Shown here piece after piece: positions 10,104 to 58,968 of a stretch of 64,000 nt of DNA. The stretch spans positions 6,874 to 70,873 of the forward strand of contig DAOUBP010000157.1 in the NCBI GenBank assembly GCA_034432655.1. The letters are read 5' to 3'. The notes under the pieces are model-generated. The model saw only the letters and a program-made list of their open reading frames with translations, searched no databases and was not told the origin of the DNA. This stretch comes from Anaerolineae bacterium (GTDB lineage Bacteria; Chloroflexota; Anaerolineae; CG2-30-64-16). Position 1 is the first letter of the stretch; each line of letters begins with the position of its first letter. The translations under genes and the position numbers were made by a program.

Positions 10104-10210
10104 GTGTTGCGTGCGTACTGCGTATTGCGTACTGCGTACTGCGTATTGCAGAGCTGCGCGCAGTTGTTAGAGTGCGAGATGAAGTACGCAGTACGCAGTG
10201 CACAGTACAC
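10104..10210. repeat. Heptanucleotide tandem repeat (TGCGTAC/TGCGTAT x~6) followed by inverted copies (GTACGCA x3); hairpin-forming
   Basis: Seen directly between convergent genes; probable bidirectional terminator-like structure. Confidence 0.7.
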
Positions 10211-12028: not shown

Positions 12029-12130
12029 GAATCAGCGAATGAGCGAATGAGCGAATGAGCGAATCAACGAATCAACGAATCAGCGCATCAGCGAATCGGC
12101 GAATCAGCGAATCAGCGAATCGGCGAATGA
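12029..12130. repeat. Heptanucleotide tandem repeat GCGAAT(C/G) about 14 units
   Basis: Seen directly; intergenic. Confidence 0.8.
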
Positions 12131-13500: not shown

Positions 13501-13553
13501 GGATTGTGGAGTGCGTAACGCGTGATGCGTAATACGTGATTCGCCGATTCGCT
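13501..13553. repeat. Heptad repeats TGCGTAA x3 + GATTCGC x2
   Basis: Seen directly; intergenic. Confidence 0.6.
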
Positions 13554-21220: not shown

Positions 21221-24085
21221 GTGCGCAAACATCTTTGGGTTCTTGTGCTCTACGCCTTGCTCAGCCTGCTGCTCACCTGGCCCACGGCAGCGCACTTCAG
21301 CACCCACGTGCCCGGCGACGGCATTGACGATCCCTCTCTCGCGTGGAACCTTTGGTGGGTCAAATATGCCCTGGTGGATCGGCCGCAGAATCCGTTTAGC
21401 TGCACCTGGCAGTTCTGGCCGATTGGGATCAATCTGGCCTTCTATACGCTGACGGTTCTCAACGGGCTGCTCAGCGTGCCGTGGCAGGTGGTCTTCGGCG
21501 TGGTGCCCGCCTATAACATCCTGCTGCTGTCGTCGTTTGTCTTGAGCGGGCTCGGCGCCTATTTGCTGAGCCTGGATTTCCTGAAGCGTCATTCACACAG
21601 CGCGTCTGCCCACCGTCCTGCTCAGGATGTTTCCCCAGGCCATTCTGATGGCACAAAGGGCCCAGAGAAACAAGGGGAGCTGCGGGTGCTGGCCGCCGCG
21701 TTTGTCGGCGGCGCGTTCTATGCGTTTGCGTCGGCCAAGATGTTCTACGCAGCGTTGGGCCAGGGCAACATCGCCAGCTCACAGTGGATCCCTTTTGCGG
21801 CGCTGTACATCCTGCGGGCTACCCGGGCCGACGGCAAGCCGCGGGAAGCGTGGCTGGCAGCGCTTTTCCTGATCCTCCAGGCCTACGCGGAGATGACCTA
21901 TGCGTCGTTCCTGGTGGTATTTGCGGCCCTGTGCGTGTTGCGTACTGCGTACAGCGTATTGCGTACGAAATACAGAATACGAAGTGCGCAGTACGCAGTA
22001 CAGAATACGGAATACACGGTACGCAATCCGCAATCCGCAATCCCCAATCCCCAATCCATCATCCTCCGCCTTGCGCTCTTCGCCCTGATCTTCGCCGTGG
22101 GGATCGCGCCGATCCTGGCCAACATGCTGCCCGACCTGCGGGCCGAGGGCGATTTCTTCACCTCCGGGGGCGGGTTTGCCGACATCTTTTCGGCCGATCT
22201 GGCGGGCTATCTGGTGCCCACGCAGCTCCATCCGGTGTTGGGCGGCCTGGTGCGGCAGTGGTCGAACAATGCCATGCCGCAACCGGACGGCCGCCACTTC
22301 GCGGTGGATAAAGGACAGCAGATCTATTTGGGCTATGTCGCGCTCGCCCTGGCGGGGGTGGGGGGTTGGCACGGCCGGCGCCGCGGCGGGACATGGTTCT
22401 GGGCCGCGGCGGCCGCGCTTTTCTTCCTGCTTACCCTGGGGCCCTCTTTGCGTATCGCCGGCCAGGATACCGGTATCCCCTTGCCTTTTCGGATTATGGA
22501 ACAATTGCCGTTTTTCAAAGGGAACCGCTATCCCAGCCGCTACAGCGTCATGCTGTTGGTAAGCCTGGCCCCACTGGTCGCGGCGGGGGTGGATCGGGTG
22601 ATTGCCTGGGCGGACCGTAGACGGCAGGCGGCAGATGGCAGATGGCGGATAGTTTCCTCTTTTCCTTTTCTCCTTCTCCTGCTCCTCCTCTTCGAGCACC
22701 TCTCCGTGCCGCTGCCCGTCTTCGACCTGCGGGTGCCAGCACTTTACGACCGGGTCGCGGCCGAGCCGGGCGATTTCGCCTTGTTGGAGCTGCCCCTGGG
22801 CTGGCGCAACGGTGCGCGTGTCGCCGGCAAGCAAGACATCGTGATCATGCAGCAGCTGTGGTATCAAACCCGACATGGCAAACGGCTGCTGGGCGGCAAC
22901 ACCTCGCGCAACCCGGAGTATAAGTTCCAGTATTTCAGCGAGGACCCCACTCTGGCGCGGCTTATCGCCGTGATCAACGCCGCTGACCTGCCGCAACACA
23001 CTGCACTGCGCGCCGCCCTGGCTGCGCGGCCCGTCACCGAGGCCGAACGGGCCGCAGCGCGCGCCTGGGCAGCCCTGCTGGAGGTCCGCTACGTCATGGT
23101 ACACCGGGACAAACTGCCTGCCGAGGCCGAGGCGTTGGCGCGTGACCTTCTGCCGCTGGACCTGGTGGCCGAGGAGGGGAGCCTGGCCCTCTACCGGCTC
23201 AGCCGACCGCTGGCCCCACCGGTGCAATTCTTGCCCGGTAGTGACACGGGGCGGCGCGTCCTCGGCGAGGGCTGGAGCCCACCCCCGTTCGACCCCGGCC
23301 AGGCGCCGGGGCCTGTCTACGCGCAACGGAAGGAAGCCCGCCTGCTGTTGCCGTTGCCCACAGCAGAAGCAACGCTCTTGCTGTCCGGCCAGGCGCTGAC
23401 CGCCGGGCAGACCGTGACCCTGATCGTCAACGGACACCGGATCGGTACGCAACCGTGGCCGCCAGAGCCCACAGCTCTGGCGTTCACCGTGCCGGCCGAC
23501 CCGACACGTCCGCCCTTGAGCGATGTGCGCTTACGCTTCGCCCGCGTCGCACCCCAGGCCGGGTTCGCCGGTGAACGCCGTGCCGTCGGGGTGCTCATCC
23601 GCAGCGCAGGCCAGGAAACAGGCGATTTCGCGCACATCTACATCGCCGGCCAGGACAGGTCACCTAACCGCCGCGGCTATAACCTGGTGGCCTTCGACCC
23701 GGGCCAGGGCCAGGTGGTGGCCGCGGCCGCCTTTGACACCCATGCCGATCCCGCCGCCGGCGCTGCGCTGGCCCGGTGGGTGGCAGCGCTGCCCGCAGGG
23801 CTGACGGTGGCGGGCGCCGTGCGCGATGAGGCCGCGATGAACCTTACCGAGGAGGCGGTTACAGCCTTGCGCAGCCTGGGGGTGATAAACGACTTGCGCG
23901 GCCATTTCCGCTGGGGCCATGCCTTCCTGGGCCAAAAGGGCGCCGCAGCCGGCACCGCGGTCGAGGCCCTGGACGGCCTCCGGCCTGCCCAGATACAGGT
24001 CGCGCCGGCGCTCAGCGCGACCGCTGCGGCCGTGACCCTGACGCAGATCGAGATCATCCCCAGCACCACGCGAATCGTCCAGTAA
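21221..24085 (+). CDS. Large polytopic membrane protein with C-terminal ILEI/FAM3-like domain (putative glycosyltransferase-associated); carries an in-frame heptad-repeat insertion
   Basis: More than 10 TM segments. PGDGIDDPSLAWNLWW N-terminal motif. C-terminal ...YIAGQDRSPNRRGYNLVAFDPGQGQVV... Start at GTG 21221 after GAGGAG. Confidence 0.55.
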   Translation: MRKHLWVLVLYALLSLLLTWPTAAHFSTHVPGDGIDDPSLAWNLWWVKYALVDRPQNPFSCTWQFWPIGINLAFYTLTVLNGLLSVPWQVVFGVVPAYNILLLSSFVLSGLGAYLLSLDFLKRHSHSASAHRPAQDVSPGHSDGTKGPEKQGELRVLAAAFVGGAFYAFASAKMFYAALGQGNIASSQWIPFAALYILRATRADGKPREAWLAALFLILQAYAEMTYASFLVVFAALCVLRTAYSVLRTKYRIRSAQYAVQNTEYTVRNPQSAIPNPQSIILRLALFALIFAVGIAPILANMLPDLRAEGDFFTSGGGFADIFSADLAGYLVPTQLHPVLGGLVRQWSNNAMPQPDGRHFAVDKGQQIYLGYVALALAGVGGWHGRRRGGTWFWAAAAALFFLLTLGPSLRIAGQDTGIPLPFRIMEQLPFFKGNRYPSRYSVMLLVSLAPLVAAGVDRVIAWADRRRQAADGRWRIVSSFPFLLLLLLLFEHLSVPLPVFDLRVPALYDRVAAEPGDFALLELPLGWRNGARVAGKQDIVIMQQLWYQTRHGKRLLGGNTSRNPEYKFQYFSEDPTLARLIAVINAADLPQHTALRAALAARPVTEAERAAARAWAALLEVRYVMVHRDKLPAEAEALARDLLPLDLVAEEGSLALYRLSRPLAPPVQFLPGSDTGRRVLGEGWSPPPFDPGQAPGPVYAQRKEARLLLPLPTAEATLLLSGQALTAGQTVTLIVNGHRIGTQPWPPEPTALAFTVPADPTRPPLSDVRLRFARVAPQAGFAGERRAVGVLIRSAGQETGDFAHIYIAGQDRSPNRRGYNLVAFDPGQGQVVAAAAFDTHADPAAGAALARWVAALPAGLTVAGAVRDEAAMNLTEEAVTALRSLGVINDLRGHFRWGHAFLGQKGAAAGTAVEALDGLRPAQIQVAPALSATAAAVTLTQIEIIPSTTRIVQ
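21931..22058 (+). repeat. Heptad tandem repeats (TGCGTAC, TACGCAG, CGCAATC, CCCAATC) inside CDS 21221..24085
   Basis: Encodes LRTAYSVLRTKYRIRSAQYAVQNTEYTVRNPQSAIPNPQSII in frame. Confidence 0.75.
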
Positions 24086-40061: not shown

Positions 40062-42191
40062 GTGAAACGAAACCGACGCGCCGATCCTGCTCGGCTCTGG
40101 CTGGCAGCCATGTTGCTGCTGGCCCTCGCCCTGCGCGTCTACCGGCTGGACGCGCAAAGTCTGTGGTACGACGAGGCAGTCACCGCGCAGGTGGCCGGCC
40201 GCGGCATCGCCGAGCTCACCCGCTGGACCGCCGATGACATCCAACCGCCGCTGTATTACTACGTGGTGGCCGGTTGGACGCGGCTGGCCGGCCGCTCCGA
40301 ATGGGCGCTGCGTTTCCCTTCTGCCTGCTTCGGCATCCTGACGGTGCCGCTGCTTTGGGCGGCCGGCCGGCGCCTGTTTGGCCGCAGGAACACCGGGCGC
40401 TGGGCGGCCGGCCTCGCGGCGTTGCTGGCTGCGACCTTACCGCTCTACGTCTACTACGCTCAGGAAGCACGCATGTACACGCTGCTGACGTTCCTGGGCG
40501 CCCTGGCCGGGTATGCCCTGCTGCGGACGACGGCCAGGAAGCCGGGGGCAGAGGACAGGGAGCAGGGGACAGGCGCCAGGGAGCAGGCAACCGAGGACAG
40601 GCAGCAGGAGACAGAGGACAAAGGGGCCAGGGAAACCAGTTCAGGCCGGCCAGGCGGATTTGCGCCCTTGGTTGTCAGGGCAACAGGCTCGACCTGGTGG
40701 CTCGTTTTCGTGCTGGCTGCGGCGGCCTTGCTCTACACCCACTACTTCGGCATCTTCTTGCTGGGCGCATATGGCATCTGCTGGTTGGCGTGGTGGACCC
40801 TGACAGCTCACGCGACAAGGCTGCGCTCGCTGACCGCGTTCGCGATCTCCGCCCTGACGATCATCGTGCTCTATCTGCCCTGGCTGCCGGCCATGCTCAA
40901 CCGTTATCGGGCCGACGCATCCTACTGGCGGGGCGCGCTGAAACTGGGCGAAGCGCTGCGCCACGTCGCGATCAACTTCAGCGTGGCCGCACCGGAGATG
41001 ATGCTGGAAAGCGAGGCCGTGCGACTGCTGCCCATCTTCGGCGGGGCCTTTGCCCTGGCCTTGATCTCGCTCTTCTGGCAGGGCAGACATGCGCGCCAGG
41101 CCAGCCTTCTGCTGATCGTCCTGCTGGTGCCGATAATCGCTGTGCTGTTCCTGGCCTCGCGCACCCCTAAGTTCAACCCACGCTACCTGATGCTGGCATC
41201 ACCGGCGTATGTGCTGCTGTTGGCGGGCGGCGTCAGCGCGCTGCGTGGACGACGTGAAAAGCCCCCGACACGACAAGGCATGCAGCACGCCACACGCAGC
41301 ACACCATACGCCATACGCCACACCTCAGCCCTCCTGCTGACCGCCTTCCTGGTTGCAGCGTCTCTGGTCAGCCTTCGTAACTGGTTCACCGACCCGGCCT
41401 TCACCAAGGCCCAGTGGCGCGAGTTGACCGCCTTGGTGCGCGCCGAACGCGCGCCAGATGAAGCTGTGCTGCTGGTCTCCGGCCATGCGTATCCGGCCTG
41501 GGACTACTACGCGGCCGATATCCCGGTTGTGCGGCTGCCCCAGATCGAGATCCTGGACGTCAACGCCGTGTTGGATTTCGGTGTCGGCGCAGAGCTGGCC
41601 ACTGCCCTGGCCGGCAAAAAGGGCGCCTGGCTGGTAAGCTGGCAGGATGAGGTAGTGGATCCCGTGGGGATCGTGCCCTACCTCCTGGAGCGCGCTGGGG
41701 CCGAGCAGGAAGTCCCCCGCAGCTTCTGGCACCTGAAACTACGGCACTGGCGGCTGCAGCCTGATGCCGCCTTCCCGACCGAGCCGCAACCCCAGCACCT
41801 CCAGGGCGCCAACTTCGACCACAAACTGGCGCTGTTGGGCTGGGATGACCCGGTGGGTGGCGAGATCATCATGTACTGGCGCGTGCTCAACATGCTGACC
41901 CAAGACTACCAGATCGCGCTGGTGATCGAGGACGCGGCAGGCAACCGGTTGGGCCAGTGGGATGGCCGGCCGGCCGGTTACCATTACCCGACGTTTCGCT
42001 GGCGGCCCGGCCAGGTTTTGTTCGGCCGTTACCCGCTCCCGCTGCCGGCTGGGGCGGCCGCCGGGGATTACACCATCACTTTGACCGTCTACGACCCCGC
42101 CGACCCCAGCGGCCTGGACATCCGTGACGTGGCCGATAACCCGGCCGGCAAACAGGCACGCCTGGGGCCGGTACGGATGAGGGGGGATTAG
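40062..42191 (+). CDS. GT-C glycosyltransferase, ArnT/PMT (GT39/GT83)-like, with heptad-repeat-encoded low-complexity inserts
   Basis: YDEAVTAQVAGRGIAE...DIQPPLYYYVVAGWTRLAG N-terminal loop motif. Multi-TM. The start (GTG 40062 or ATG 40110) is uncertain. Confidence 0.7.
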   Translation: MKRNRRADPARLWLAAMLLLALALRVYRLDAQSLWYDEAVTAQVAGRGIAELTRWTADDIQPPLYYYVVAGWTRLAGRSEWALRFPSACFGILTVPLLWAAGRRLFGRRNTGRWAAGLAALLAATLPLYVYYAQEARMYTLLTFLGALAGYALLRTTARKPGAEDREQGTGAREQATEDRQQETEDKGARETSSGRPGGFAPLVVRATGSTWWLVFVLAAAALLYTHYFGIFLLGAYGICWLAWWTLTAHATRLRSLTAFAISALTIIVLYLPWLPAMLNRYRADASYWRGALKLGEALRHVAINFSVAAPEMMLESEAVRLLPIFGGAFALALISLFWQGRHARQASLLLIVLLVPIIAVLFLASRTPKFNPRYLMLASPAYVLLLAGGVSALRGRREKPPTRQGMQHATRSTPYAIRHTSALLLTAFLVAASLVSLRNWFTDPAFTKAQWRELTALVRAERAPDEAVLLVSGHAYPAWDYYAADIPVVRLPQIEILDVNAVLDFGVGAELATALAGKKGAWLVSWQDEVVDPVGIVPYLLERAGAEQEVPRSFWHLKLRHWRLQPDAAFPTEPQPQHLQGANFDHKLALLGWDDPVGGEIIMYWRVLNMLTQDYQIALVIEDAAGNRLGQWDGRPAGYHYPTFRWRPGQVLFGRYPLPLPAGAAAGDYTITLTVYDPADPSGLDIRDVADNPAGKQARLGPVRMRGD
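40532..40640 (+). repeat. Heptad-periodic repeat (xxxCAGG units) inside GT-C CDS
   Basis: Encodes RKPGAEDREQGTGAREQATEDRQQETEDKGARE. A second heptad tract (CATACGC units) lies at about 41281-41322. Confidence 0.6.
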
Positions 42192-42287: not shown

Positions 42288-42333
42288 TTCGTTGATTCGC
42301 CGATTCGCTGATTCGCCGATTCGCTATTCGCTC
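42288..42333. repeat. Heptad tandem repeat GATTCGC x6 (reverse complement of the GCGAATC family)
   Basis: Seen directly, upstream of the 42349 gene. Confidence 0.75.
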
Positions 42334-43763: not shown

Positions 43764-44822
43764 ATGGACGCGCAACACGGAGTACGCAATACGCAATACG
43801 GAGTACGCAATACGCAATACGGAGTACGCAATACGCTCGCCATCATCGTCGTCAGCTACAACGTGCGTGATTTGTTGCGCGCCTGCCTGCAAGCCACGTA
43901 CGCCAGCCTGGCGCTCAGCCCGGAGATCGCGGCAACCGTGTGGGTGGTAGACAACGCCTCGGCCGATGGCAGCGCCGAGATGGTAGCGGCCGAATTCCCC
44001 CAAGCGCGCTTGATCGCCAGCCCCCAGAATCTGGGCTTCGCCGGCGGCAACAACTTGGTGTTGCATGCACTGGGCTTTGGAGATTCAACACAACAGGATG
44101 ATCGGAAACACTCCCCAAGCCCCAATCCCCAATACGTCCTTCTGCTCAACCCCGACGCCGAACCCATCGGCGACGCCATCGGACAGATGGTCCGTTTCTT
44201 GCGCGAACACCCGGGAGTTGGTGGCGCCGGCGCGCAGCTCCAGTACCCCGATGGCAGATTTCAGCACGCCGCGTTCGCCTTTCCGGGGCTGCTGCAACTG
44301 TGGTTCGACCTCTTCCCCCCGCGGCCGCGGCGGCTGTTAGATTCCCGCCTCAACGGCCGCTACCCCAGACGGCGCTACCAGGCCGGGCAACCCTTCCCGG
44401 TTGATTTCGTCTTGGGCGCGGCGTTGCTGGTGCGGCGAGAGGCGATCGCGGCGGTGGGCCTGCTGGATGAGGGCTACTTTATGTACGCCGAAGAGGTGGA
44501 CTGGTGCTGGCGGATGCGCCGCGCGGGCTGGCCGCTATGGTGCGTGCCCTCGGCCCGCGTGATCCATCATGGCGGCGCCAGCGCGCAGCAATTCCGCTCG
44601 CAATCGTTCGTCAACCTCTGGCGCAGCCGCCAGCGCTTGTATTCTCGTTTCTATGGGCCGCTGCGGCAAAGGCTGGCAAGCTGGATCGTGCGCCTGGGCA
44701 TGGCAGCCGAGATCAGGCGGGCAAAAGCCGGCTACAGACGCGGGGAGATCAGCATGGAAGAACGGGAGGCCCGAATCCAGGCAGCGCAAACCGTGAAAAA
44801 GCTATTCGCGAGGAACAGATGA
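43764..44822 (+). CDS. Glycosyltransferase family 2
   Basis: IIVVSYNVRDLL...VDNASADGS...GFAGGNN GT2 motifs. The 5' end carries a repeat-encoded (GVRNTQY)x3. Confidence 0.75.
   Translation: MDAQHGVRNTQYGVRNTQYGVRNTLAIIVVSYNVRDLLRACLQATYASLALSPEIAATVWVVDNASADGSAEMVAAEFPQARLIASPQNLGFAGGNNLVLHALGFGDSTQQDDRKHSPSPNPQYVLLLNPDAEPIGDAIGQMVRFLREHPGVGGAGAQLQYPDGRFQHAAFAFPGLLQLWFDLFPPRPRRLLDSRLNGRYPRRRYQAGQPFPVDFVLGAALLVRREAIAAVGLLDEGYFMYAEEVDWCWRMRRAGWPLWCVPSARVIHHGGASAQQFRSQSFVNLWRSRQRLYSRFYGPLRQRLASWIVRLGMAAEIRRAKAGYRRGEISMEEREARIQAAQTVKKLFARNR
43779..43836 (+). repeat. 21-nt unit (GGAGTAC-GCAATAC-GCAATAC) x about 3 within the 5' coding region of the GT2
   Basis: Seen directly. Confidence 0.75.
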
Positions 44823-47844: not shown

Positions 47845-48612
47845 TCAACGGCCGGACGGCGCCAGCGCGGCCCGGATGCGACGCCCTTTGCGCAAGAGCC
47901 GCCGGAGCGCAAGCCGCAGAACGGTGCGCGCGGCTTTCAGGATCTCGTTGCGGGAGATCTTGGATTGTCCCAGGCGACGATCAACGAAAACGATCGGCAC
48001 CTCACCGACAGTGAAGCCGAGCTGCTGACAATTGTACAACATCTCGATCAGATATGAATAGCCATTGGCACGAATCGCATCCAGATCAATGGCTTCCAGC
48101 ACCGCGCGACGATAGCAACGAAAGCCCGCTGTGCAATCGCGCGCGTGCAGGCCCAGTACCAGGTGTGCCAGCGTGTTTGCGCCCCAACTCAGCAACTTGC
48201 GCTCAACTCCCCACAGGCGCACCCCGCCCCCTGGGACATACCGCGACCCGATGACCAGGTCGTAACGCTGGCTGGCCTCCAACAGGGCAGGCAGATAAGA
48301 AGGATCATGGGAGAAATCGGCGTCCATCGTCAGGATCAAATCTGCTCCCATCGCCAGGGCCTGCCGAAAGCCGGCTGTGTAGGCCGTGCCCAGGCCTAAC
48401 TTGCCGGCCCGATGGATGACGTGAATATCATCGCGGCCGCGCGCCAGCTCATCGGCCAGCTGGCCGGTGCCATCGGGAGAATTGTCGTCTACGATGATGA
48501 CCTGGATCGGGGCAGACAGCGCTGAGATCGCCGCAATGAGAGCGCGCAGGTTCTCTCGCTCATTGTAAGTCGGCAATACAAGGACCACGTTAGGACGATA
48601 AGTATGGGGCAC
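47845..48612 (-). CDS. GT2 polyprenol-phosphate mannosyl/glucosyltransferase (DPM1/Ppm1-like)
   Basis: VVLVLPTYNERENL and IIVDDNSPDGT motifs. Start likely the GTG after GAGGAAAA. The longer ORF would run into the divergent promoter. Confidence 0.8.
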   Translation of the reverse strand: MPHTYRPNVVLVLPTYNERENLRALIAAISALSAPIQVIIVDDNSPDGTGQLADELARGRDDIHVIHRAGKLGLGTAYTAGFRQALAMGADLILTMDADFSHDPSYLPALLEASQRYDLVIGSRYVPGGGVRLWGVERKLLSWGANTLAHLVLGLHARDCTAGFRCYRRAVLEAIDLDAIRANGYSYLIEMLYNCQQLGFTVGEVPIVFVDRRLGQSKISRNEILKAARTVLRLALRRLLRKGRRIRAALAPSGR

Positions 48613-48755
48613 GAACTGTTTTCCTCGATGAGAATGGCCAGACTTTAACTGCCATGCACGTTTCAAGCCTATTCTAGCACAACCTGACATACGACGCCAG
48701 TGTAATGGGGGCAGTGGTGCAATTGATGAAACTAGAAAAATCTTGCACAAACCCC

Positions 48756-48783
48756 TTGACATTCTCGTGAAAATCATTATAAT
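48756..48783 (+). promoter_or_regulatory. Near-consensus sigma70 promoter TTGACA / 16 bp / TATAAT
   Basis: Read directly; 60 nt upstream of the Rrf2 start. Confidence 0.55.
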
Positions 48784-48802
48784 TGAGACTAGTTTAGTCT
48801 CA
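48784..48802. promoter_or_regulatory. Perfect palindrome TGAGACTA-gtt-TAGTCTCA abutting the -10; candidate Rrf2 operator (autoregulation)
   Basis: 8-bp arms, 3-bp spacer, located at the predicted transcription start. Confidence 0.5.
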
Positions 48803-48842
48803 ATTCCTCAACGCAAGTTCTTACGCAACCGGCTGAGCTGCC

Positions 48843-49265
48843 ATGATCACTATCAACCGTGAGACCGACTATGCAGCTCGCGTGCTCCTGCATCTGGCAC
48901 TCCAGGAACCAGGCAGCCGCGTCACTGCGCAACAAATAGCCGCGCAGCGCGTGATCCCTCGTGCTCTGGTGCGCCGGGTGGTCAGCCGCCTCAGCGCCGC
49001 CGGTCTCGTGATCACGACGCGCGGCAGCGAAGGCGGGATCAGCCTGGCCCGGCCAGCTGCGCAGATCAGCCTGTTGGATGTCGTGGAAGCCCTCGAGGGG
49101 CCACTGGCTCTCAACATCTGCACCATCGAGCCCGAAGTGTGCCCCTTGATCCCGGTTTGCACCGTACACGACGCCTGGGTCCACGCCCGGCAGCTATTGC
49201 GCGACACCCTGGCCCAGATCACATTCGACAGGCTGGCGAACAAGAAGGAGGTGGGTAGCGGGTAG
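48843..49265 (+). CDS. Rrf2 family transcriptional regulator (IscR/NsrR-like, 3 Cys)
   Basis: N-terminal wHTH (YAARVLLHLA). C-x6-C-x5-C cluster ligands. Confidence 0.85.
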   Translation: MITINRETDYAARVLLHLALQEPGSRVTAQQIAAQRVIPRALVRRVVSRLSAAGLVITTRGSEGGISLARPAAQISLLDVVEALEGPLALNICTIEPEVCPLIPVCTVHDAWVHARQLLRDTLAQITFDRLANKKEVGSG

Positions 49266-49267
49266 GA

Positions 49268-49365
49268 GCGAAACAGCGAAGCAACGAATCATGAATCAGC
49301 GAATCAGCGAATCACGAATTCACTGTTCGTCCGTTCGCCGTTTGCTGATTCGCCCATTCACCGTC
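49268..49365. repeat. Heptad tandem repeat CGAATCA x~5 followed by its inverted copy (TGATTCG); large hairpin
   Basis: Seen directly between the Rrf2 gene and cydA. Confidence 0.75.
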
Positions 49366-49398
49366 AGGTATCAGCCATTTCTCTGTGGAGGTTGACGC

Positions 49399-50766
49399 AT
49401 GGATTCCCTTATTCTGGCGCGCTGGCAGTTTGCCATCACGACTGTCTACCACTTCTTCTTCGTGCCTCTGACGTTGGGGCTGTCGGTCCTGGTTGCCCTC
49501 ATGCAGACCATCTATGTGCGCACCGGAGACGAAACCTGGAAGCGCATGACTAAATTCTGGGGCAAGCTATTCGTCATCAACTTCGCCATGGGGGTCGTCA
49601 CCGGCATCGTCCAGGAGTTCCAGTTCGGCATGAACTGGTCGGAATACTCCCGCTTTGTAGGCGATATCTTCGGCGCACCGCTGGCCATAGAGGCATTATT
49701 GGCCTTCTTCATGGAGTCTACCTTCCTGGGGGTCTGGATCTTCGGCTGGGACAGGCTGTCCAAGAAGGTGCATCTGGCGTCCATCTGGTTGGTGGCGATC
49801 GGTTCCAACCTGTCGGCGCTGTGGATTCTGATTGCCAATTCGTTCATGCAAGAGCCGGTCGGTTTCGTAATCCGTGGCGGCCGGGCCGAAATGGTGGACT
49901 TCGGCGCCTTGCTGACCAATCCCCACGTCTGGTTGCAATGGCCGCATGTCTTCTTCTCCGGTTTGGCCACCGCTGCCTTCTTCATGCTGGGCATCGTGGC
50001 GTGGCGGATGCTACGAAAGGATAGCGACCGGAGCTTTCTACGCCGCTCGTTCCAGATGGCGGCAGTGGTTGCGCTGTTAGGCTCTGTCATGGTGGGGCTG
50101 ATCGGCCATTCCCAGGCCCAGCACATGATCCGGACGCAACCGATGAAGATGGCCGCGGCCGAGGCGCTGTGGAACACGGAACAACCGGCTGCCATGTCTC
50201 TTTTCACCGTCGGCGATATGGTCAACCGCCGCGACATCTTCGCCATCCGCTTGCCGGCTGTGTTGAGCATCCTGGCCTGCAACCGCACCGATTGCGCAGT
50301 GCAAGGCATCAACGAGCTGCAAGCGCAATATGAATCGCAATACGGGCCGGGCAATTACGTGCCGTTCGTGGTATTAATCTACTGGGCCTTTCGGGCAATG
50401 GTGGGGGCCGGTGTGGCGATGGTCGCGCTGGGCGCATGGGCTTTGTATCGCGTGTTGCGTGATCGCATCAGCGCGCCGGGCTGGCTGCTGCGACTCCTGC
50501 CGTTAGCGATCGCCCTACCGTATATTGCGAATACCGCAGGTTGGATCCTCACCGAAATGGGCCGCCAGCCATGGATCGTGTTTGGCGTGTTGAAAACCGA
50601 AGATGCCGTATCGCCCAACGTGGCCGGCGGGATGGTGCTGGCATCGCTGATCGGCTTCACGCTGCTTTACGGCGTGTTGATGGCTGCCGATGTCTACCTG
50701 CTGGCGAAATACGCCAAAGCCAATACCGAGGACGTGGCAAAGGACGTGGTCCCGAGCTGGGCGTGA
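49399..50766 (+). CDS. cydA: Cytochrome bd ubiquinol oxidase subunit I
   Basis: MDSLILARWQFAITTVYHFFFVPLTLG and Q-loop. Confidence 0.95.
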   Translation: MDSLILARWQFAITTVYHFFFVPLTLGLSVLVALMQTIYVRTGDETWKRMTKFWGKLFVINFAMGVVTGIVQEFQFGMNWSEYSRFVGDIFGAPLAIEALLAFFMESTFLGVWIFGWDRLSKKVHLASIWLVAIGSNLSALWILIANSFMQEPVGFVIRGGRAEMVDFGALLTNPHVWLQWPHVFFSGLATAAFFMLGIVAWRMLRKDSDRSFLRRSFQMAAVVALLGSVMVGLIGHSQAQHMIRTQPMKMAAAEALWNTEQPAAMSLFTVGDMVNRRDIFAIRLPAVLSILACNRTDCAVQGINELQAQYESQYGPGNYVPFVVLIYWAFRAMVGAGVAMVALGAWALYRVLRDRISAPGWLLRLLPLAIALPYIANTAGWILTEMGRQPWIVFGVLKTEDAVSPNVAGGMVLASLIGFTLLYGVLMAADVYLLAKYAKANTEDVAKDVVPSWA

Positions 50767-50807: not shown

Positions 50808-51821
50808 ATGGAGCTCAGTACCCTCTGGTTTATCCTGATCGGTGTGCTTTTCACCGGTTTCTTCATCCTGGAAGGGTTTGACTACGGCGTGGGTATCCTG
50901 TTGCCGTTCTTGGGCAAGAAGGACGAAGAACGCCGGGTGATCATCAACACCATTGGTCCATTTTGGGACGCCAACGAGGTGTGGCTGCTGACGGCCGGTG
51001 GTGCGATGTTCGCCGCGTTTCCCAACTGGTACGCCACGCTGTTCAGCGGTTTCTATCTGGCGCTGTTCCTCATGCTGGCGGCATTGATCGTGCGCGGGGT
51101 GGCGTTCGAGTTCCGCAGTAAAGACAAAAATCCCCGCTGGCGCGCCCTATGGGATTGGTGCATCTTCGTCGGCAGTTTCGTGCCCGCGCTGTTGTGGGGC
51201 GTGGCAATGTCCAACATTGTGCGCGGGGTGCCCATTGACGCGAACATGCACTACGTGGGCGGCTTCTTCAACCTCTTGAATCCTTACGCGCTGTTGGGCG
51301 GCGTGGCCGGATTGGGTGTGTTCACCCTGCACGGGGCGATCTTCCTGAGCTTGCGCACCGAGGGCGAGCTACATGCACGCGCAGAAACGGTGGCGAACCG
51401 TCTGTGGCCGATCGTGCTGGCCGTCGGCGCGGCAACCGTGGTTGCCAGCTACTTCGCCACCGACATCTTCCAGCGGTTAGGGATCAACCCGGGCATCAGC
51501 GCGCTGGGCGCGGGCGCAGCATTCCTGGCCGGCGGCTGGTTCTTGCGGCAGAAGCAAACGGGGTGGGCCTTCGCCATGACCGCCCTGACCATTGCACTGA
51601 CGATCGTGACTACCTTCCGCGGGCTCTACCCGCGTGTAATGGTGTCCAGCCTGAACCCGGATTGGAGCCTGACGGTCGCCAACGCCTCGTCGTCGCCTTA
51701 CACCTTGCGCGTCATGACCATCGTCGCGCTGATCTTTGTGCCCATCGTGCTGATTTATCAGGCCTGGAATTACTGGGTGTTCCGGGCCCGGCTCAGCGGT
51801 AAGAGCGCCCTGAAGTACTGA
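50808..51821 (+). CDS. cydB: Cytochrome bd ubiquinol oxidase subunit II
   Basis: MELSTLWFILIGVLFTGFFILEGFDYGVG. ACGGAGG RBS. Confidence 0.9.
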   Translation: MELSTLWFILIGVLFTGFFILEGFDYGVGILLPFLGKKDEERRVIINTIGPFWDANEVWLLTAGGAMFAAFPNWYATLFSGFYLALFLMLAALIVRGVAFEFRSKDKNPRWRALWDWCIFVGSFVPALLWGVAMSNIVRGVPIDANMHYVGGFFNLLNPYALLGGVAGLGVFTLHGAIFLSLRTEGELHARAETVANRLWPIVLAVGAATVVASYFATDIFQRLGINPGISALGAGAAFLAGGWFLRQKQTGWAFAMTALTIALTIVTTFRGLYPRVMVSSLNPDWSLTVANASSSPYTLRVMTIVALIFVPIVLIYQAWNYWVFRARLSGKSALKY

Positions 51822-51876: not shown

Positions 51877-51933
51877 TCCTCAGATGCGGACGGCGAATGC
51901 GCACAACCCTGTAAGACCGCTCGCATCTGAGGA
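51877..51933 (+). other. 12-bp perfect inverted repeat (TCCTCAGATGCG...CGCATCTGAGGA) with 33-nt loop between cydB and cydDC
   Basis: Seen directly. Confidence 0.3.
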
Positions 51934-51992
51934 TGCTTGCTCCTCAGCCTTACTCCCCAACGCCATTCCTGGCAGTCACCCACGGGCTCGGC

Positions 51993-54900
51993 ATGTCTAA
52001 ATTCTTCGACCGCCGCCTTCTGAAAGAGGCCCAAGAGCGCCGCCTCGGCCTGGGACTGACCGTTGCGCTCAGCGCGCTGGCCGGCATCCTGACGGTGGGC
52101 CAGGCAACCGCTCTGAGTCATGCCGTAGCTGCCGTTTTCCTGGCCAACAGCGATCTGGGAGGCGTGCAACCCTGGCTGCTGGCACTGGCCGGCCTGACGG
52201 CGGCGCGCAGCCTGGCGGCCTGGGGAGGCGAGGTGGCGGCCAATCGCCTGGCGTTACAAGTGAAAAGCACGCTGCGCGCGCGGCTGATGGGCCACATCCT
52301 GACGTTGGGCCCGGCCTACATCCGAGGCGAGCGCACCGGTGAGCTGGTCAACACGGTCACCGAAGGGGTCGAGGCGCTGGATGCATACTTCAGCCAATAC
52401 CTGCCGCAAGTGGCACTGGCCGCTATTGTCCCGTTGGCTTTCCTCGCCGTCGTGTTCCCACGCGATCCGCTTTCCGGCCTGGTGTTGCTCCTGACAGCAC
52501 CGCTGATCCCCCTCTTCATGGTGCTGATCGGCAACGTGGCAGACGCGCTCACCCGCCGCCAATGGGGCGCACTCGGCCGCATGAGCGCGCACTTCCTGGA
52601 CGTGCTACAGGGTTTGACCACTCTCAAACTTTTCGGCCGCAGCCGGGAGCAGATCGCCATCATCCGACAGATCACCGATCAGCATCGCGATGCTACGCTG
52701 AAGGTGCTGCGGGTGGCTTTCCTGTCTGCTCTGGTGCTGGAGATGGTGGGCACGATCAGCACCGCCATCGTCGCGGTCGCGATCGGCCTGCGGTTGCTTT
52801 ACGGCAAGATGCTCTTTCAAGACGCGTTTTTCGTGTTGATCCTGGCTCCGGAATTCTACCTGCCGTTGCGCCTGCTGGGCACGCGTTTTCACGCCGGCAT
52901 AGCGGGGGTGGCAGCGGCTGGACGTATCTTCCAGGTGTTAGAGACAGGGGAGTGCAGAGACGCGGCGACGCAGGGACGCGAGGACATTGGGGCGCAGAGA
53001 CGCGGCGACGCGGACACAGAAACGCGGGGACGCGAAGACGCAGGGACATTGAGATGCGGGGGCGCGGAGACGCAAGGACGCTCTGCGTCTCCCTCTCTCC
53101 ACGTCTCCCTCTCCCCCCCTCTCCCCCTTCGCGTCGTGTTCGAGAACGTCTCCTACACCTATCCGACCCGCGCTACCCCTGCGCTGGACAGCATCAGCTT
53201 TGAGATCGGTCCCGGCGAAGTAGTGGCACTGGTCGGCCCCACCGGCGCAGGCAAGAGCACCGTGGCACAACTGCTCCTGGGCTTTATTCGTCCCACAACG
53301 GGCAAAATCACGGCGAAGATCGAAACAAAACCCGATGCCCATCAAACCGTCCGGCCTGACGCCACACCTCAGCCCCCAGCCTCCAGCTCCCGGCTCCCGA
53401 CTCCCGGTTCCCAGCCGCCGGCCGCCAGCCCCCGGCCACCAGCTGCCAGTCTCCAGCTTCCAGCCACCAGCTTCCGTCCTGCCTGGATGCCGCAATCTCC
53501 TTATCTGTTCTACGCCTCAGTGGCCGATAACATCCGGCTCGGCCGGCCCGCTGCCTCATGGGAGGAACTGCTTCGTGCAGCCGAGGCCGCCAACGCAGAC
53601 GACTTCATCCGGGCGTTGCCTCAAGGCTACGACACCGTCATCGGCGAACGCGGGGAACGACTCAGCGGCGGCCAGGCACAGCGGATCGCCCTGGCGCGCG
53701 CCTTGCTGATGGATGCACCGCTGGTAGTGTTGGACGAGCCCACGGCCAATCTGGACCTGGAAAGCGAAGCAGCAGTGCAGGCCGGCATCGGACGTTTGCT
53801 GCAAGGCCGCAGCGCCCTGATCATCGCCCACCGGCTGAACACGGTGCGCGCCGCGGATCGCATCATCGTGCTCGATGCCGGAAGGATCGTCGAACAAGGC
53901 ACACACGACGAGCTGATGGCGCGCCAGGGCAGCTACGCACAATTGGTGACCAGTGCGCAAGCCGAGAGCGCACCGGACGCGGCGGTCAGCCCTGTGTCAC
54001 CGGCGGCCGACCTGCAAACGCTTCGGCGCCAGGACTTACACACGGCACAACGTGGAGCACAGGACACGCAACACGCGGCACACAATACCCAGGACGCAAT
54101 ACACAACACGCAGTACGGAATACACAATCCCCAATCCACAATCATCGCCCTTCTCTCGTTTCTCGCCCCTTTCTGGCGCTGGGTGGCACTGGCAGTACTG
54201 CTGGGATTTCTGGCCATCGGCAGCAGCATCGGGTTATTGGGCACCTCAGCCTGGATCATCGCCATGGCCGCACTGCAGCCTTCCATCGCAGTCCTGCAGG
54301 TCGCAATCGTGGGGGTGCGCTTCTTCGGCATCGCGCGCGGCGTTTTCCGCTACCTGGAACGCCTGGTCTCCCATCAAGTCACATTCCGGCTGCTCGCCCA
54401 ATTGCGGGTCTGGTTCTACAGCATGATCGAGCCGCTGGCACCGGCGCAGCTCTCCGGCCGGCGGAGCGGCGACCTGCTGAACAGGATCGTATCCGACATC
54501 GCGGCGCTAGAGCAGTTCTACGTCCGGGCCGTCGCACCGCCCCTGGTCGCCCTGCTCACATCTGCCCTGGCGGTCTTGATCGTCGGCCTACACCACCCGG
54601 TGTTGATCGGGCCGTTGTTGATCTTTCTGGCCTTGACCGGCCTTGCAACACCGTTCGTTGTCCAACTGCTGGCCCGACCGGTGGGGGTAGAAGTAGCAGA
54701 AAGCCGCGCTGCGCTGAGTGCTGCGCTGGTGGATGGCGTGCAAGGCGCGGCCGATTTGCTGGCCTTTGGGGCTGAGGAAACGCACCTGGGACACATACAA
54801 GACCTCGACCGCCGGCTCGCTGATGGCCAGGCGCGCACGGCGGCCATCACTGCGCTGAGCACTGCACTGGGTATCCTGTTCACGTGGCTGGCAGCAACCT

Positions 54901-55949
54901 TGATCCTGGCGACAGCCATTCCCTTGGTAACTGGGGGCCAATTGTCCGGTGTCAACCTGGCTGTATTGGCGCTGGTAACCCTGGCAGCCTTCGAAGGGGT
55001 GCTCCCGCTGTCGCAAGCTGCACACGCGCTGCAGACCAGCCTGGCAGCGGCACACCGCCTGTTCGAGCTGATCGCGCAGCCGGCTTATGGCGTGCCGCTG
55101 TCGTCCCCTGCCCCTGTCACCGGCCTGCCGGCCGAAATACGGCCTCTTCCGGCACCGCCAGCGGCCCAACAGCCCCCCACTTTGACCGCCGCCCCACCGC
55201 TCCGGGTGGAGAACCTGACCATGCGCTACGCGGCGGACGAGCTGCCGGCCCTGTGGGATGTGAGCTTTGCCGTGCCGGCTGGCGGCCGGGTTGCCATCGT
55301 GGGGGCCAGCGGCGCGGGGAAATCGTCCCTGGCCGCCGTCCTGCTCCGTCTCTGGGATTACCAGCAGGGCCAGGTGTGGCTGGGTGACTACGAGCTGCGT
55401 GAACTGCCTCCCGAATGGGTACGCCAACAGATTGCAGTCGTAACGCAGCAGGCCCATCTATTCAACGGGACGATACGGGACAACCTCCTGTTGGCCCGAC
55501 CGGAAGCGACCCCAATCGAACTGGAACAGGCGGCGCGCGCAGCACAAATCCACGACTTCATTCGAGCGTTGCCGGCCGGCTATGACACCTGGATCGGCGA
55601 GCATGGCCTGCAGCTCAGCGGAGGGGAGCGTCAACGGCTGGCGATCGCGCGGGCCTTTCTAAAAAACGCTCCCATTTTGATCCTGGATGAGCCAACCGCC
55701 AACCTGGATGCGCACACTGCCCGTGCTTTGCTACAGGCACTTACACCGCTGACTGCGGGCAAGACCACACTCATCATCACCCATCGTCTGGAGCAACTGC
55801 GCGATGACGACCAGGTCCTCCTTCTCAACCGCGGGCGGCTGATAGCAACCGGCTATCACGCAGACCTGCTGGCGCGTGACCCTCTATATCAGCGCCTCTG
55901 GCGGCGCGAACGCGAAACACTGGACGACCAGGCGGGCAGACAATGGTAA
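51993..55949 (+). CDS. cydDC: Fused CydD-CydC thiol-reductant ABC exporter (two TMD-NBD halves in one ORF) with repeat-encoded inserts
   Basis: Two ABC halves, each with Walker A (GPTGAGKST; GASGAGKSS), signature (LSGGQAQR; LSGGERQR) and Walker B. Continuous 1338-aa ORF in the track. Confidence 0.8.
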   Translation: MSKFFDRRLLKEAQERRLGLGLTVALSALAGILTVGQATALSHAVAAVFLANSDLGGVQPWLLALAGLTAARSLAAWGGEVAANRLALQVKSTLRARLMGHILTLGPAYIRGERTGELVNTVTEGVEALDAYFSQYLPQVALAAIVPLAFLAVVFPRDPLSGLVLLLTAPLIPLFMVLIGNVADALTRRQWGALGRMSAHFLDVLQGLTTLKLFGRSREQIAIIRQITDQHRDATLKVLRVAFLSALVLEMVGTISTAIVAVAIGLRLLYGKMLFQDAFFVLILAPEFYLPLRLLGTRFHAGIAGVAAAGRIFQVLETGECRDAATQGREDIGAQRRGDADTETRGREDAGTLRCGGAETQGRSASPSLHVSLSPPLPLRVVFENVSYTYPTRATPALDSISFEIGPGEVVALVGPTGAGKSTVAQLLLGFIRPTTGKITAKIETKPDAHQTVRPDATPQPPASSSRLPTPGSQPPAASPRPPAASLQLPATSFRPAWMPQSPYLFYASVADNIRLGRPAASWEELLRAAEAANADDFIRALPQGYDTVIGERGERLSGGQAQRIALARALLMDAPLVVLDEPTANLDLESEAAVQAGIGRLLQGRSALIIAHRLNTVRAADRIIVLDAGRIVEQGTHDELMARQGSYAQLVTSAQAESAPDAAVSPVSPAADLQTLRRQDLHTAQRGAQDTQHAAHNTQDAIHNTQYGIHNPQSTIIALLSFLAPFWRWVALAVLLGFLAIGSSIGLLGTSAWIIAMAALQPSIAVLQVAIVGVRFFGIARGVFRYLERLVSHQVTFRLLAQLRVWFYSMIEPLAPAQLSGRRSGDLLNRIVSDIAALEQFYVRAVAPPLVALLTSALAVLIVGLHHPVLIGPLLIFLALTGLATPFVVQLLARPVGVEVAESRAALSAALVDGVQGAADLLAFGAEETHLGHIQDLDRRLADGQARTAAITALSTALGILFTWLAATLILATAIPLVTGGQLSGVNLAVLALVTLAAFEGVLPLSQAAHALQTSLAAAHRLFELIAQPAYGVPLSSPAPVTGLPAEIRPLPAPPAAQQPPTLTAAPPLRVENLTMRYAADELPALWDVSFAVPAGGRVAIVGASGAGKSSLAAVLLRLWDYQQGQVWLGDYELRELPPEWVRQQIAVVTQQAHLFNGTIRDNLLLARPEATPIELEQAARAAQIHDFIRALPAGYDTWIGEHGLQLSGGERQRLAIARAFLKNAPILILDEPTANLDAHTARALLQALTPLTAGKTTLIITHRLEQLRDDDQVLLLNRGRLIATGYHADLLARDPLYQRLWRRERETLDDQAGRQW
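52944..53125 (+). repeat. Heptad-periodic GC-rich repeat tract with internal inverted segment inside cydD half (between TMD and NBD)
   Basis: Encodes ETGECRDAATQGREDIGAQRRGDADTETRGREDAGTLRCGGAETQGRSASPSLHVSLSPPLPL. Confidence 0.6.
53377..53478 (+). repeat. Heptad repeat CCAGCTx x~14 inside the CydD NBD (between Walker A and Q-loop)
   Basis: Encodes a Pro/Ala/Ser-rich insert ...PQPPASSSRLPTPGSQPPAASPRPPAASLQLPATSF... Confidence 0.7.
54040..54147 (+). repeat. Heptad repeats (CACGCAA/ATACACA/CCCAATC) forming the CydD-CydC linker
   Basis: Encodes HTAQRGAQDTQHAAHNTQDAIHNTQYGIHNPQSTII. Confidence 0.7.
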
Positions 55950-58088: not shown

Positions 58089-58176
58089 GCCGAAGTGGCG
58101 GAATGGCAGACGCGCTAGGTTCAGGACCTAGTGAGGATTAGACCTCGTGTGGGTTCAACTCCCACCTTCGGCACCA
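58089..58176 (+). tRNA. tRNA-Leu (anticodon CAG), long variable arm, encoded CCA
   Basis: Acceptor GCCGAAG/CTTCGGC. Anticodon loop TTCAGGA. T-arm GGTTCAACTCC. Confidence 0.85.
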
Positions 58177-58249: not shown

Positions 58250-58654
58250 ATGTCCGCAGACCGCGGGTGGCGGCGTCTGCCGAGCCGCGAACACTGGCTC
58301 TTGCTAGTCGGTATTGCGGCACTGGTCTTCTTCGCCTTCGGTTTCGTGGAATTGACCGTCACCCGGCAGAATTTGATGGCTCGTTACGAACGTGCCGCCG
58401 GGCGGGTGGAACGGATGCGAGAGCAAAACGCTCTTCTGCAACCAGAACTGACCCGGGGCCAACAAGATGAACATCTGCCCGGGCGGGCGTGGCAATACTT
58501 CGGGCAGACCCCGCCGGGGGCTGGGGTGATCATTGCCGAACCGCCAACAATGGCAGCGCCGCAGCCAGCCGCAACGACATCGGCAACGCGGGAACCTGTT
58601 TGGATTGTGGTCTGGAAACGTTTGATCGGGGCTTTGACAAATCGGCGGTTTTGA
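58250..58654 (+). CDS. Hypothetical small membrane protein, FtsB/DivIC (septum formation initiator)-like
   Basis: Single TM (WLLLVGIAALVFFAFGF) followed by a coiled coil (NLMARYERAAGRVERMREQNALLQ). Confidence 0.4.
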   Translation: MSADRGWRRLPSREHWLLLVGIAALVFFAFGFVELTVTRQNLMARYERAAGRVERMREQNALLQPELTRGQQDEHLPGRAWQYFGQTPPGAGVIIAEPPTMAAPQPAATTSATREPVWIVVWKRLIGALTNRRF

Positions 58655-58661
58655 TTATAAT
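58634..58661 (+). promoter_or_regulatory. Consensus promoter TTGACA / 16 bp / TATAAT for initiator tRNA
   Basis: Read directly; 12 nt upstream of the tRNA 5' end. Confidence 0.55.
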
Positions 58662-58673
58662 ATAAGTCAGTGA

Positions 58674-58747
<74 letters not shown>

Positions 58748-58894: not shown

Positions 58895-58968
58895 GGCGAC
58901 GTAGCTCAGTGGCAGAGCAAGCGGCTCATAATCGCTGGGTCGACAGTTCAAGTCTGTCCGTCGCCACC
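58895..58968 (+). tRNA. tRNA with CAT anticodon (elongator Met or lysidine Ile2)
   Basis: Acceptor GGCGACG/CGTCGCC. Loop CTCATAA. T-arm GACAGTTCAAGTCTGTC. Confidence 0.8.

Follow-up and report, generated by a model that had tools for sequence, protein, structure and literature searches.

How cytochrome bd oxidase is controlled in strict and facultative anaerobes beyond the model phyla is largely unknown. The enzyme is the main oxygen-scavenging, nitric oxide (NO)- and sulfide-tolerant oxidase of such anaerobes, and the known cyd regulators FNR, ArcA, Rex and CydR come from Proteobacteria, Firmicutes and Actinobacteria. The question is raised by a 64,000-nucleotide stretch of an Anaerolineae genome (contig DAOUBP010000157.1, positions 6,874 to 70,873; hereafter the window, in whose numbering positions are given), in which a gene for a small Rrf2-type regulator (rrf2) directly precedes cydA, cydB and cydDC. 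The original prediction, made from the DNA letters, proposed autoregulated Rrf2 control of cydABDC, a proposal now supported by the conservation of a predicted operator and by its relocation to the front of cydA in some genomes. We put at roughly 0.7 the probability that rrf2-cydABDC is an autoregulated operon under an iron-sulfur (Fe-S) Rrf2 repressor released by O2 or NO stress.

A consensus promoter overlaps a 25-bp palindrome upstream of rrf2

The -35 hexamer TTGACA (48756-48761) and the -10 hexamer TATAAT (48778-48783), both on the plus strand, are separated by 16 nt and together reach a 12/12 consensus score in a promoter scan (48756-48783), as the original prediction had it. Only one other perfect consensus occurs in the 64-kb window, a TTGACA-17-TATAAT promoter at 58634 that lies 12 nt 5' of the transfer RNA (tRNA) gene at 58674; since it serves a tRNA gene, the perfect consensus is the organism's form for very strong promoters. 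Further tRNA genes are found at 58089 and 58895 (stretches 58634-58745 and 58895-58966).

The last three nucleotides of the -10 box double as the beginning of a perfect palindrome, AATTGAGACTA-GTT-TAGTCTCAATT (11-3-11, 48781-48805, both strands), which spans the -10 box and the expected +1 position. The palindrome that had been predicted at +1 is thus present, overlaps the -10 box and is longer than first noted: a shorter repeat, TGAGACTA-GTT-TAGTCTCA at 48784-48802, extends perfectly to 25 bp, with AAT common to the repeat and the -10 box. It was matched in none of 100 dinucleotide shuffles. Transcription is expected to start about 7 nt past the -10 box, near 48790 and hence within the palindrome, whose end lies 37 nt from the rrf2 start. 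This placement across -10 and +1 points to repression rather than activation. Neither a pattern search allowing up to 3 mismatches nor the ortholog-derived matrix described below found a second copy in the 64-kb window, so that the regulon within the window would comprise the rrf2-cyd operon only.

A T(C/T)GTGAA element is seen just past the -35 box in the window (48735-48775) and its close relatives, and other relatives carry a quasi-palindrome, cTTGTGAA-N5-TTGACAAg, over the -35 box (the upstream regions of L003-L007, L010, L016, L017 and L211 among those concerned). We considered and rejected a second conserved site near -35: TTGTGAA-like sequences occur in a subset of relatives, are inconsistent in sequence and orientation, and the upstream copy is absent from the window. 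Elements of this type could mark where a second regulator binds (CRP/FNR-like half-sites), or reflect no more than common descent.

The palindrome is conserved and follows the promoter of the cyd operon

A homolog search returned 182 relatives, labelled Anaerolineae where their source was named, and a scan of species-representative genomes yielded 80 loci totalling 460 kb. In aligned orthologous upstream regions TTGACA is followed by a 17-nt spacer and TA-TAAT running into wAATGAkACy-N5-rGTmTCATTw, so the palindrome, whose absence from orthologous promoters would have told against the original prediction, is conserved there. A position weight matrix was built from 31 orthologous sites, excluding that of the window. 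The window site scores 31.2 bits, and no other match in the 64 kb reaches 8 bits (best of 20 shuffles, 12.4). Of the 66 matches scoring at least 11 bits in the 80 loci (460 kb), 60 sit 32-115 nt upstream of an rrf2 start, the six exceptions coming from L075, L076 and L080, three loci of Brevefilum type or Anaerolineaceae that are AT-rich. Geothrix loci (Acidobacteriota), which lay outside the training set, have sites at -34, and another one at -51 often overlaps these. Among 38 distinct orthologous promoters whose site scores 20 bits or more, TTGACA is perfect at the equivalent position in 31. A -10 box that agrees with the consensus at 5 or more positions out of 6 is found in 34, and the box always runs directly into the left palindrome arm.

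Gene order provides a further view of the site. In three more distant members (P0101, P0107, P0119) the order is cydA-cydB-cydDC-rrf2, with rrf2 overlapping the end of cydDC. The only strong matrix match within 11-20 kb in the three cydA-first genomes scores 34-39 bits and lies 103-120 nt upstream of cydA, fused to TATAAT. That the site is found ahead of cydA when cydA leads the operon indicates that the operator tracks the promoter of the cyd operon and not the position of the regulator gene. The search for extra copies that the original prediction had suggested found none elsewhere in the window; in each of these three genomes the site lies upstream of cydA. Together, the comparisons support the prediction that the palindrome is the operator of the cyd operon.

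Two neighbouring observations concern these relatives. The cydA-first leaders (L208 3917-4006, L210 3796-3873, L211 1704-1798) share, between operator and cydA, the conserved stem CCCGTCCC...GGGGCGGG with a T-run on its 3' side. It resembles an intrinsic terminator or attenuator, with an upstream GGACAGG that could pair alternatively; it had no Rfam match, and in that clade may add a second layer of cyd control at the RNA level. In two Holophagaceae loci (L045 3001-4309, L049 3001-4098), two tandem paralogous Rrf2 genes of the subfamily are followed by an OmpW-family gene in place of cydAB, and the upstream motif is weak (12-13 bits).

The role of the palindrome as an operator being itself a prediction, the site might be bound by another factor, or be non-regulatory, and merely adjoin an Rrf2 gene. 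It does also contribute to a second signal: on the minus strand (48803-48776) the palindrome and -10 box form a promoter-like TTGAGA-16-TATAAT (11/12 match) pointing at the divergent glycosyltransferase gene (47845-48612, probable GTG start). Four results nevertheless make this explanation highly improbable. Scanning metagenome contigs with the DNA pattern alone, AATGATAC-N7-GTATCATT, gave 121 sites, at 43 of which an Rrf2 gene lies immediately downstream; the position of the site is conserved in two phyla; the site travels with the operon promoter where rrf2 comes last; and its architecture is that of known Rrf2 operators (PMC9338935).

The minus-strand promoter-like site is probably a by-product, as it is weaker in the close relatives L082 and L085. 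The divergent gene, which encodes a family-2 glycosyltransferase and lies upstream of rrf2 on the opposite strand, was also considered as a co-regulated target and rejected: this neighbour is kept in the closest relatives only, and the minus-strand site decays there. The pattern scan additionally returned a perfect palindrome, AATGATACGTA-A-TACGTATCATT, in several unrelated contigs with no Rrf2 neighbour (L103 990-1012 and 1127-1149, L120, L125, L133 and others), probably a different repeated element that matches the pattern by chance.

A three-cysteine Rrf2 protein outside the named orthologue groups

The 140-residue product of rrf2 (48843-49265, plus strand), a winged-helix regulator (Pfam Rrf2 E-value 1.2e-34), scores 119.8 bits against PF02082 (cut-off 30) and 95.4 bits against TIGR00738 (cut-off 73.3). 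Its AlphaFold2 model (predicted local distance difference test score 89.7) shows a winged helix-turn-helix and a long dimerisation helix. Foldseek aligned the model to CymR, RsrR, NsrR and IscR with template modelling (TM) scores of 0.7-0.8, RsrR and CymR being the best; similar scores against several Rrf2 structures confirm the fold and do not discriminate the subfamily.

Cys93, Cys100 and Cys106, spaced CX6CX5C, bear out the three-cysteine Rrf2 gene of the original prediction, which had also looked to the conservation of these ligands in relatives. All three, together with Asp9 and Trp112, are kept in every one of 121 homologs, 118 of which also have His109. In a profile alignment with Streptomyces NsrR, Asp9, Cys93, Cys100 and Cys106 fall on Asp8, Cys93, Cys99 and Cys105, the [4Fe-4S] ligands of Streptomyces coelicolor NsrR (ScNsrR; PMC9218516). 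The pattern conserved among the homologs is CX6CX5CX2H, that of the IscR set being CX5CX5CX2H. In IscR, His107 lies three residues past Cys104. His109 of the window protein is likewise three residues past the last cysteine, so that a Cys3-His [2Fe-2S] site is conceivable.

Transfer of function by orthology is precluded, as the protein falls short of every NCBIfam equivalog cut-off: NsrR (62.1 bits, 182 required), IscR (60.4 against 207.55 for TIGR02010 and 41.2 against 275 for NF008110), RirA (71.9 against 193), the Xanthomonas-type SUF regulator (83.6 against 110.65), and also CymR and HypR. The relatives, and the regulators of the broader clade described below, likewise score below all named NCBIfam Rrf2 groups. 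By these sequence criteria the window regulator is a member of the Rrf2 family outside all named orthologue groups. A library of representatives at 50% identity contained 11 proteins at E<=1e-30 and 2,965 at E<=1e-10, which indicates that the cyd-linked group is a small clade of a large family.

The conserved cysteines could alternatively act without a cluster, as a thiol/disulfide or thiol-modification switch of the HypR, SaiR or SifR kind in which oxidation frees the repressor. Cysteine-based Rrf2 sensors lacking a cluster exist (PMC9218516), the operon product CydDC exports thiols, one relative is linked with glutaredoxin and ferredoxin-thioredoxin reductase, and HypR matches are found, albeit weak and below threshold. 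The cysteine spacing and N-terminal Asp nevertheless equal the ScNsrR cluster ligands position by position, all four being invariant, and the known switches follow other patterns (Cys33/Cys99 in HypR, CX7C in SaiR; PMC9218516). We therefore regard a cluster-free mechanism as distinctly improbable, and favour an Fe-S sensor.

Gene organization of the rrf2-cyd locus

The genes 3' of rrf2 are all on the plus strand: cydA (cytochrome bd oxidase subunit I, 49399-50766, Pfam Cyt_bd_oxida_I 5e-174), preceded by a Shine-Dalgarno sequence GGAGG at 49388-49392; cydB (subunit II, 50820-51821, Pfam Cyt_bd_oxida_II 3.6e-115); and cydDC, encoding a fused ABC exporter. The cydDC open reading frame (ORF) spans 51933-55949, its true start being probably near 51993, and the product exceeds the NCBIfam cut-offs for both CydD (TIGR02857, 873.7 bits against 435) and CydC (TIGR02868, 698.9 bits against 329). 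CydA, CydB, CydD and CydC are thus all above curated cut-offs and encoded in a single orientation, as expected of a cydABDC operon.

Across the 80 related loci, cydA lies directly 3' of rrf2 in 42, including both Chloroflexota and Geothrix/Holophagaceae (Acidobacteriota), and the rrf2-cydA spacer of orthologs ranges from -13 to 496 nt. In L003, L005 and L007 the two genes have 13 nt in common, in L025 they have 4, and the promoter scan found no promoter-like site between them in the window. Given this overlap in relatives and the lack of an intervening promoter in the window, the economical reading is that rrf2, cydA, cydB and cydDC form one transcript from the promoter at 48756.

A proposed repressor switch and its candidate signals

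In the switch that we propose, rrf2-cydA-cydB-cydDC would be transcribed as one operon from a consensus sigma-70-type promoter, and an Rrf2 dimer on the 25-bp palindrome, lying over the -10 box and start site, would occlude RNA polymerase. With the repressor gene itself in the operon, the arrangement would amount to negative autoregulation. Cys93, Cys100 and Cys106, with Asp9 of the partner subunit, would hold a subunit-bridging Fe-S cluster of the NsrR type, His109 (IscR type) being an alternative fourth ligand. The DNA-binding form would be the cluster-bearing one, as a labile Fe-S sensor that induces an oxidase upon encountering an oxidant must bind DNA in that form; NsrR, RsrR and RirA offer precedents (PMC9218516, PMC9338935). 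Damage to or oxidation of the cluster by O2, reactive oxygen species (ROS) or NO would take the repressor off the DNA, and derepression would lead to the synthesis of a high-affinity, NO/ROS-tolerant cytochrome bd oxidase and of the CydDC assembly exporter. We infer that there is a cluster and of which type, that the holo form is what binds DNA, and which signal is sensed, the last of these from the ligand alignment and the gene sets that the regulators appear to control.

These gene sets extend beyond cyd. The same subfamily and operator stand ahead of rubrerythrin in L022 and L028, and ahead of a cluster of glutaredoxin, ferredoxin-thioredoxin-reductase-like and rubrerythrin genes in L040. 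The 43 Rrf2 proteins linked to the DNA pattern are 130-160 residues long where complete, are 24-38% identical to the window protein, and share a TDY motif and three cysteines. Their genes are followed most commonly by those of FrdX-like 4Fe-4S ferredoxin proteins, and also by genes for hybrid-cluster protein, desulfoferrodoxin, hemerythrin, rubrerythrin and flavin reductase-rubredoxin. Anaerobes use these downstream sets to defend themselves against oxygen, peroxide, superoxide and NO, and cytochrome bd fits among them. That the signal sensed is O2 or NO, acting through a labile Fe-S cluster, is in our estimation an even bet.

An alternative is that the regulator senses iron or Fe-S supply in the manner of IscR or RirA, and with the same operator and autoregulation tunes the production of the iron-costly haem enzyme cytochrome bd and of di-iron rubrerythrin. 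The best sub-threshold NCBIfam models are indeed those of the SUF regulator (83.6 bits) and RirA (71.9 bits), His109 at Cys+3 resembles IscR His107 after Cys104, and the core of the window operator, GACTA-N3-TAGTC, recalls the IscR type-1 core. A Geobacter Rrf2 gene beside cydAB, which looks unrelated to that of the window, moreover responds to Fe(II)/Co(II) (PMC7726332). Set against these likenesses, all equivalog cut-offs are missed widely, isc, suf or iron-uptake genes are adjacent in none of the loci examined, and the partners also include genes (glutaredoxin/ferredoxin-thioredoxin reductase, desulfoferrodoxin, hybrid-cluster protein) that belong to stress defence and not to iron supply. 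We consider an iron sensor unlikely, and retain O2 or NO stress as the preferred signal.

Several points weigh against the reading of the locus as an O2/NO-responsive Fe-S switch. Its regulator lies below every NCBIfam equivalog cut-off and satisfies the superfamily model only, and the combination of a conserved NsrR-type Asp with an IscR-type His at Cys+3 leaves the predicted cluster type between the two. The conservation of the promoters is inflated by the phylogeny that orthologous promoters share, the Geothrix and cydA-first loci being more independent tests, and the site scan of the source genome covered 64 kb only. Both cytochrome bd and rubrerythrin contain iron, so that a signal of iron or Fe-S supply would also agree with these gene sets. 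A literature search (Rrf2 regulator of cydAB, the motif, and GSU1639 of Geobacter sulfurreducens) returned incidental mentions only and no characterised Rrf2 regulator of cytochrome bd. Finally, the binding, transcript and cofactor aspects of the switch are predictions for every member of the group.

More broadly, we give even odds to the view that the window regulator represents an uncharacterised Rrf2 subfamily of two phyla (Anaerolineae in Chloroflexota, Holophagae in Acidobacteriota) acting as a dedicated O2/NO-stress switch of cytochrome bd, and of rubrerythrin in some lineages. It would be marked by a hybrid ligand signature, the NsrR-type Asp and IscR-type His around CX6CX5C. It would also form part of a much larger unnamed clade with the operator ATGAkAC-N7-GTmTCAT that governs the oxygen and nitrosative defences of anaerobes (hybrid-cluster protein, desulfoferrodoxin, hemerythrin, rubrerythrin, FrdX-like ferredoxins). 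This broader clade appears to control oxidative and nitrosative defence in many uncultured anaerobes, and the operator matrix can be used to annotate its regulon in metagenome-assembled genomes. The locus itself would be a compact switch, conserved in Chloroflexota and Acidobacteria, of one promoter, one 25-bp operator and one 140-residue sensor. The gain is incremental, in that the regulator's family and fold, its autoregulated layout and its likely chemistry are already well known; its predicted target, cytochrome bd, has no described Rrf2 regulator in the literature searched.

Relation to characterized regulators

In its working mode, the predicted switch is likened to NsrR and other Fe-S Rrf2 repressors, and in its function to the repression of cydAB by CydR (Fnr) and FNR. 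CydR (Fnr) of Azotobacter vinelandii, FNR and ArcA of Escherichia coli, and Rex of Bacillus and Streptomyces regulate cydAB in response to oxygen or redox state, CydR and FNR doing so through an O2/NO-labile [4Fe-4S] cluster. They are functional analogues from unrelated families (CRP/FNR, OmpR-type and Rex), none of which is encoded within the cyd operon.

The closest mechanistic parallel is offered by NsrR of S. coelicolor (PDB 5N07/7B0C), a [4Fe-4S] NO-sensing Rrf2 repressor. It has the same fold as the window protein (Foldseek TM about 0.7), all four of its cluster ligands align with Asp9, Cys93, Cys100 and Cys106, and it is autoregulated with a small stress-defence regulon. The two proteins nevertheless share only about 25% identity, the window protein has the additional conserved His109, and its target is cydABDC and not hmp, no hmp gene being adjacent. 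The operators also differ, the NsrR motif being gATGyAT-N5-ATrCATc (PMC1274295) and that of the window family ATGAkACy-N5-rGTmTCAT; the outer ATG...CAT is common to both, but lies 4 bp further apart in the window family, whose arms are 2 nt longer per side. Rrf2 operators, that of NsrR among them, are palindromes of about 23 bp whose centre is not contacted (PMC9338935), and the operator family found here agrees with this in having arms that are conserved and a centre that varies.

IscR, the [2Fe-2S] regulator of Fe-S biogenesis, likewise shares the Rrf2 fold and three cysteines followed by a His at Cys+3, and its gene heads its operon and is negatively autoregulated, as predicted for rrf2. 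The core of the window operator, GACTA-N3-TAGTC, is similar to the 25-bp IscR type-1 site, whereas the consensus of the window family is GAtAC/GTaTC and not GACT/AGTC. The window protein differs further in its CX6CX5C spacing (CX5CX5C in IscR), and neither the window nor any related locus examined has isc or suf genes adjoining rrf2. RsrR, HypR, SaiR and SifR are autoregulated repressors with palindromic operators at redox-defence promoters (PMC9218516). The ligands of RsrR (E8/H12/C90/C110), Cys33/Cys99 of HypR and the single Cys of SifR (PMC9218516) all differ from the residues of the window protein.

An Rrf2 gene, GSU1639, lies directly upstream of cydAB (GSU1640/1641) in G. sulfurreducens, where transcriptome data show co-regulation and the product was read as an IscR-like iron sensor (PMC7726332). 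GSU1639 is uncharacterised and has no described operator, and its N-terminus, MMELTR... (from a primer, PMC2817479), differs from that of the window protein, which makes it probably a member of another Rrf2 subfamily. Several large clusters of the Rrf2 network are uncharacterised (PMC9218516).

A repeat hairpin between rrf2 and cydA

Between rrf2 and cydA, the window contains an imperfect hairpin formed by opposed arrays of 7-8-nt repeats (49267-49362, plus strand, from fold energy and repeat analysis). One arm consists of (GAATCAGC)n at 49267-49319, the other of TTCGYC/GATTCGCC units at 49327-49360; the 27-nt arms are 78% complementary and the fold reaches -32.7 kcal/mol (z -2.9). The heptad-repeat hairpin of the original prediction (49268-49365) is therefore real as a hairpin, but its main unit is the octamer GAATCAGC (period 8, 6.9 copies) and not a strict heptad.

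That prediction had also cast the hairpin as a partial terminator or processing site, a role that would set the ratio of regulator to oxidase. A stable stem located exactly between the regulator and structural genes is suggestive of such a function, the corresponding spacers of L001, L082 and L086 likewise hold arrays that form hairpins, and heptamer repeats lying between genes close to start codons have elsewhere been put forward as post-transcriptional signals (PMC4679880). The stem is, however, followed by CCGTCAGGTATCAGCC with no U-tract, no terminator was called on the plus strand between rrf2 and cydA, and an Rfam search of 48500-49500 gave no match at E<=1. Comparison with relatives points the same way. 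Three close ones, L082, L085 and L086, whose regulator is 90% identical, keep the gene order with spacers of 68-340 nt; that of L082 holds a 322-nt hairpin (-121 kcal/mol, z -10.5), but the spacers of L085 and L002 contain a different repeat in one orientation that is unstructured. Beyond the nearest relatives the spacer (-13 to 496 nt) lacks the repeat, many orthologs having repeat-free spacers of -13 to about 40 nt. The arm units evolve independently, so that their pairing would be incidental to a common GAATC/GATTC core, and about 20 arrays of 7-8-nt tandem repeats occur in the 64-kb window, some intergenic and some within ORFs. A functional terminator or processing site is accordingly quite unlikely, and the claim is not supported. 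Given the abundance of such arrays in the window, their variability or absence in orthologs and the lack of a U-tract or Rfam match, we interpret the hairpin from its sequence as a lineage-specific repeat expansion, inserted and tolerated in an operon spacer and lying outside the conserved switch. An effect on messenger RNA stability or processing is possible, and finds no support in this analysis.

The arrays of the window include those at 10112-10208, 12029-12128, 13512-13537, 21939-22057, 40544-40620, 42294-42324, 43771-43836, 49267-49360, 52954-53128, 53370-53475 and 54064-54143. Their units include GAATCAGC, TGCGTAC, CGCAATC and CGCAATA, and several arrays lie in operon spacers or just 5' of a Shine-Dalgarno sequence and start codon. 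Some are opposed and form hairpins, such as that at 10112-10208 between convergent genes (-55 kcal/mol). Comparable TAACTGA heptamer direct repeats are found in filamentous Beggiatoaceae, cyanobacteria and Bacteroidetes, in intergenic positions often just 5' of start codons and occasionally in ORFs (PMC4679880). The two kinds are alike in their short tandem units, abundance and placement; the window arrays differ in their units (GAATCAGC, TGCGTAC, CGCAATC and others), in the presence of several unit families in one genome, and in being often opposed so as to form hairpins.

Repeats of this sort also reach into one protein of the operon. The fused CydDC is about 160 residues longer than its 1,175-residue L208 orthologue, and the extra segments (52959-53132, 53316-53408 and 54024-54134) coincide with in-frame repeat arrays that encode low-complexity inserts, for example GREDAGTLRCG and QYGIHNPQ.

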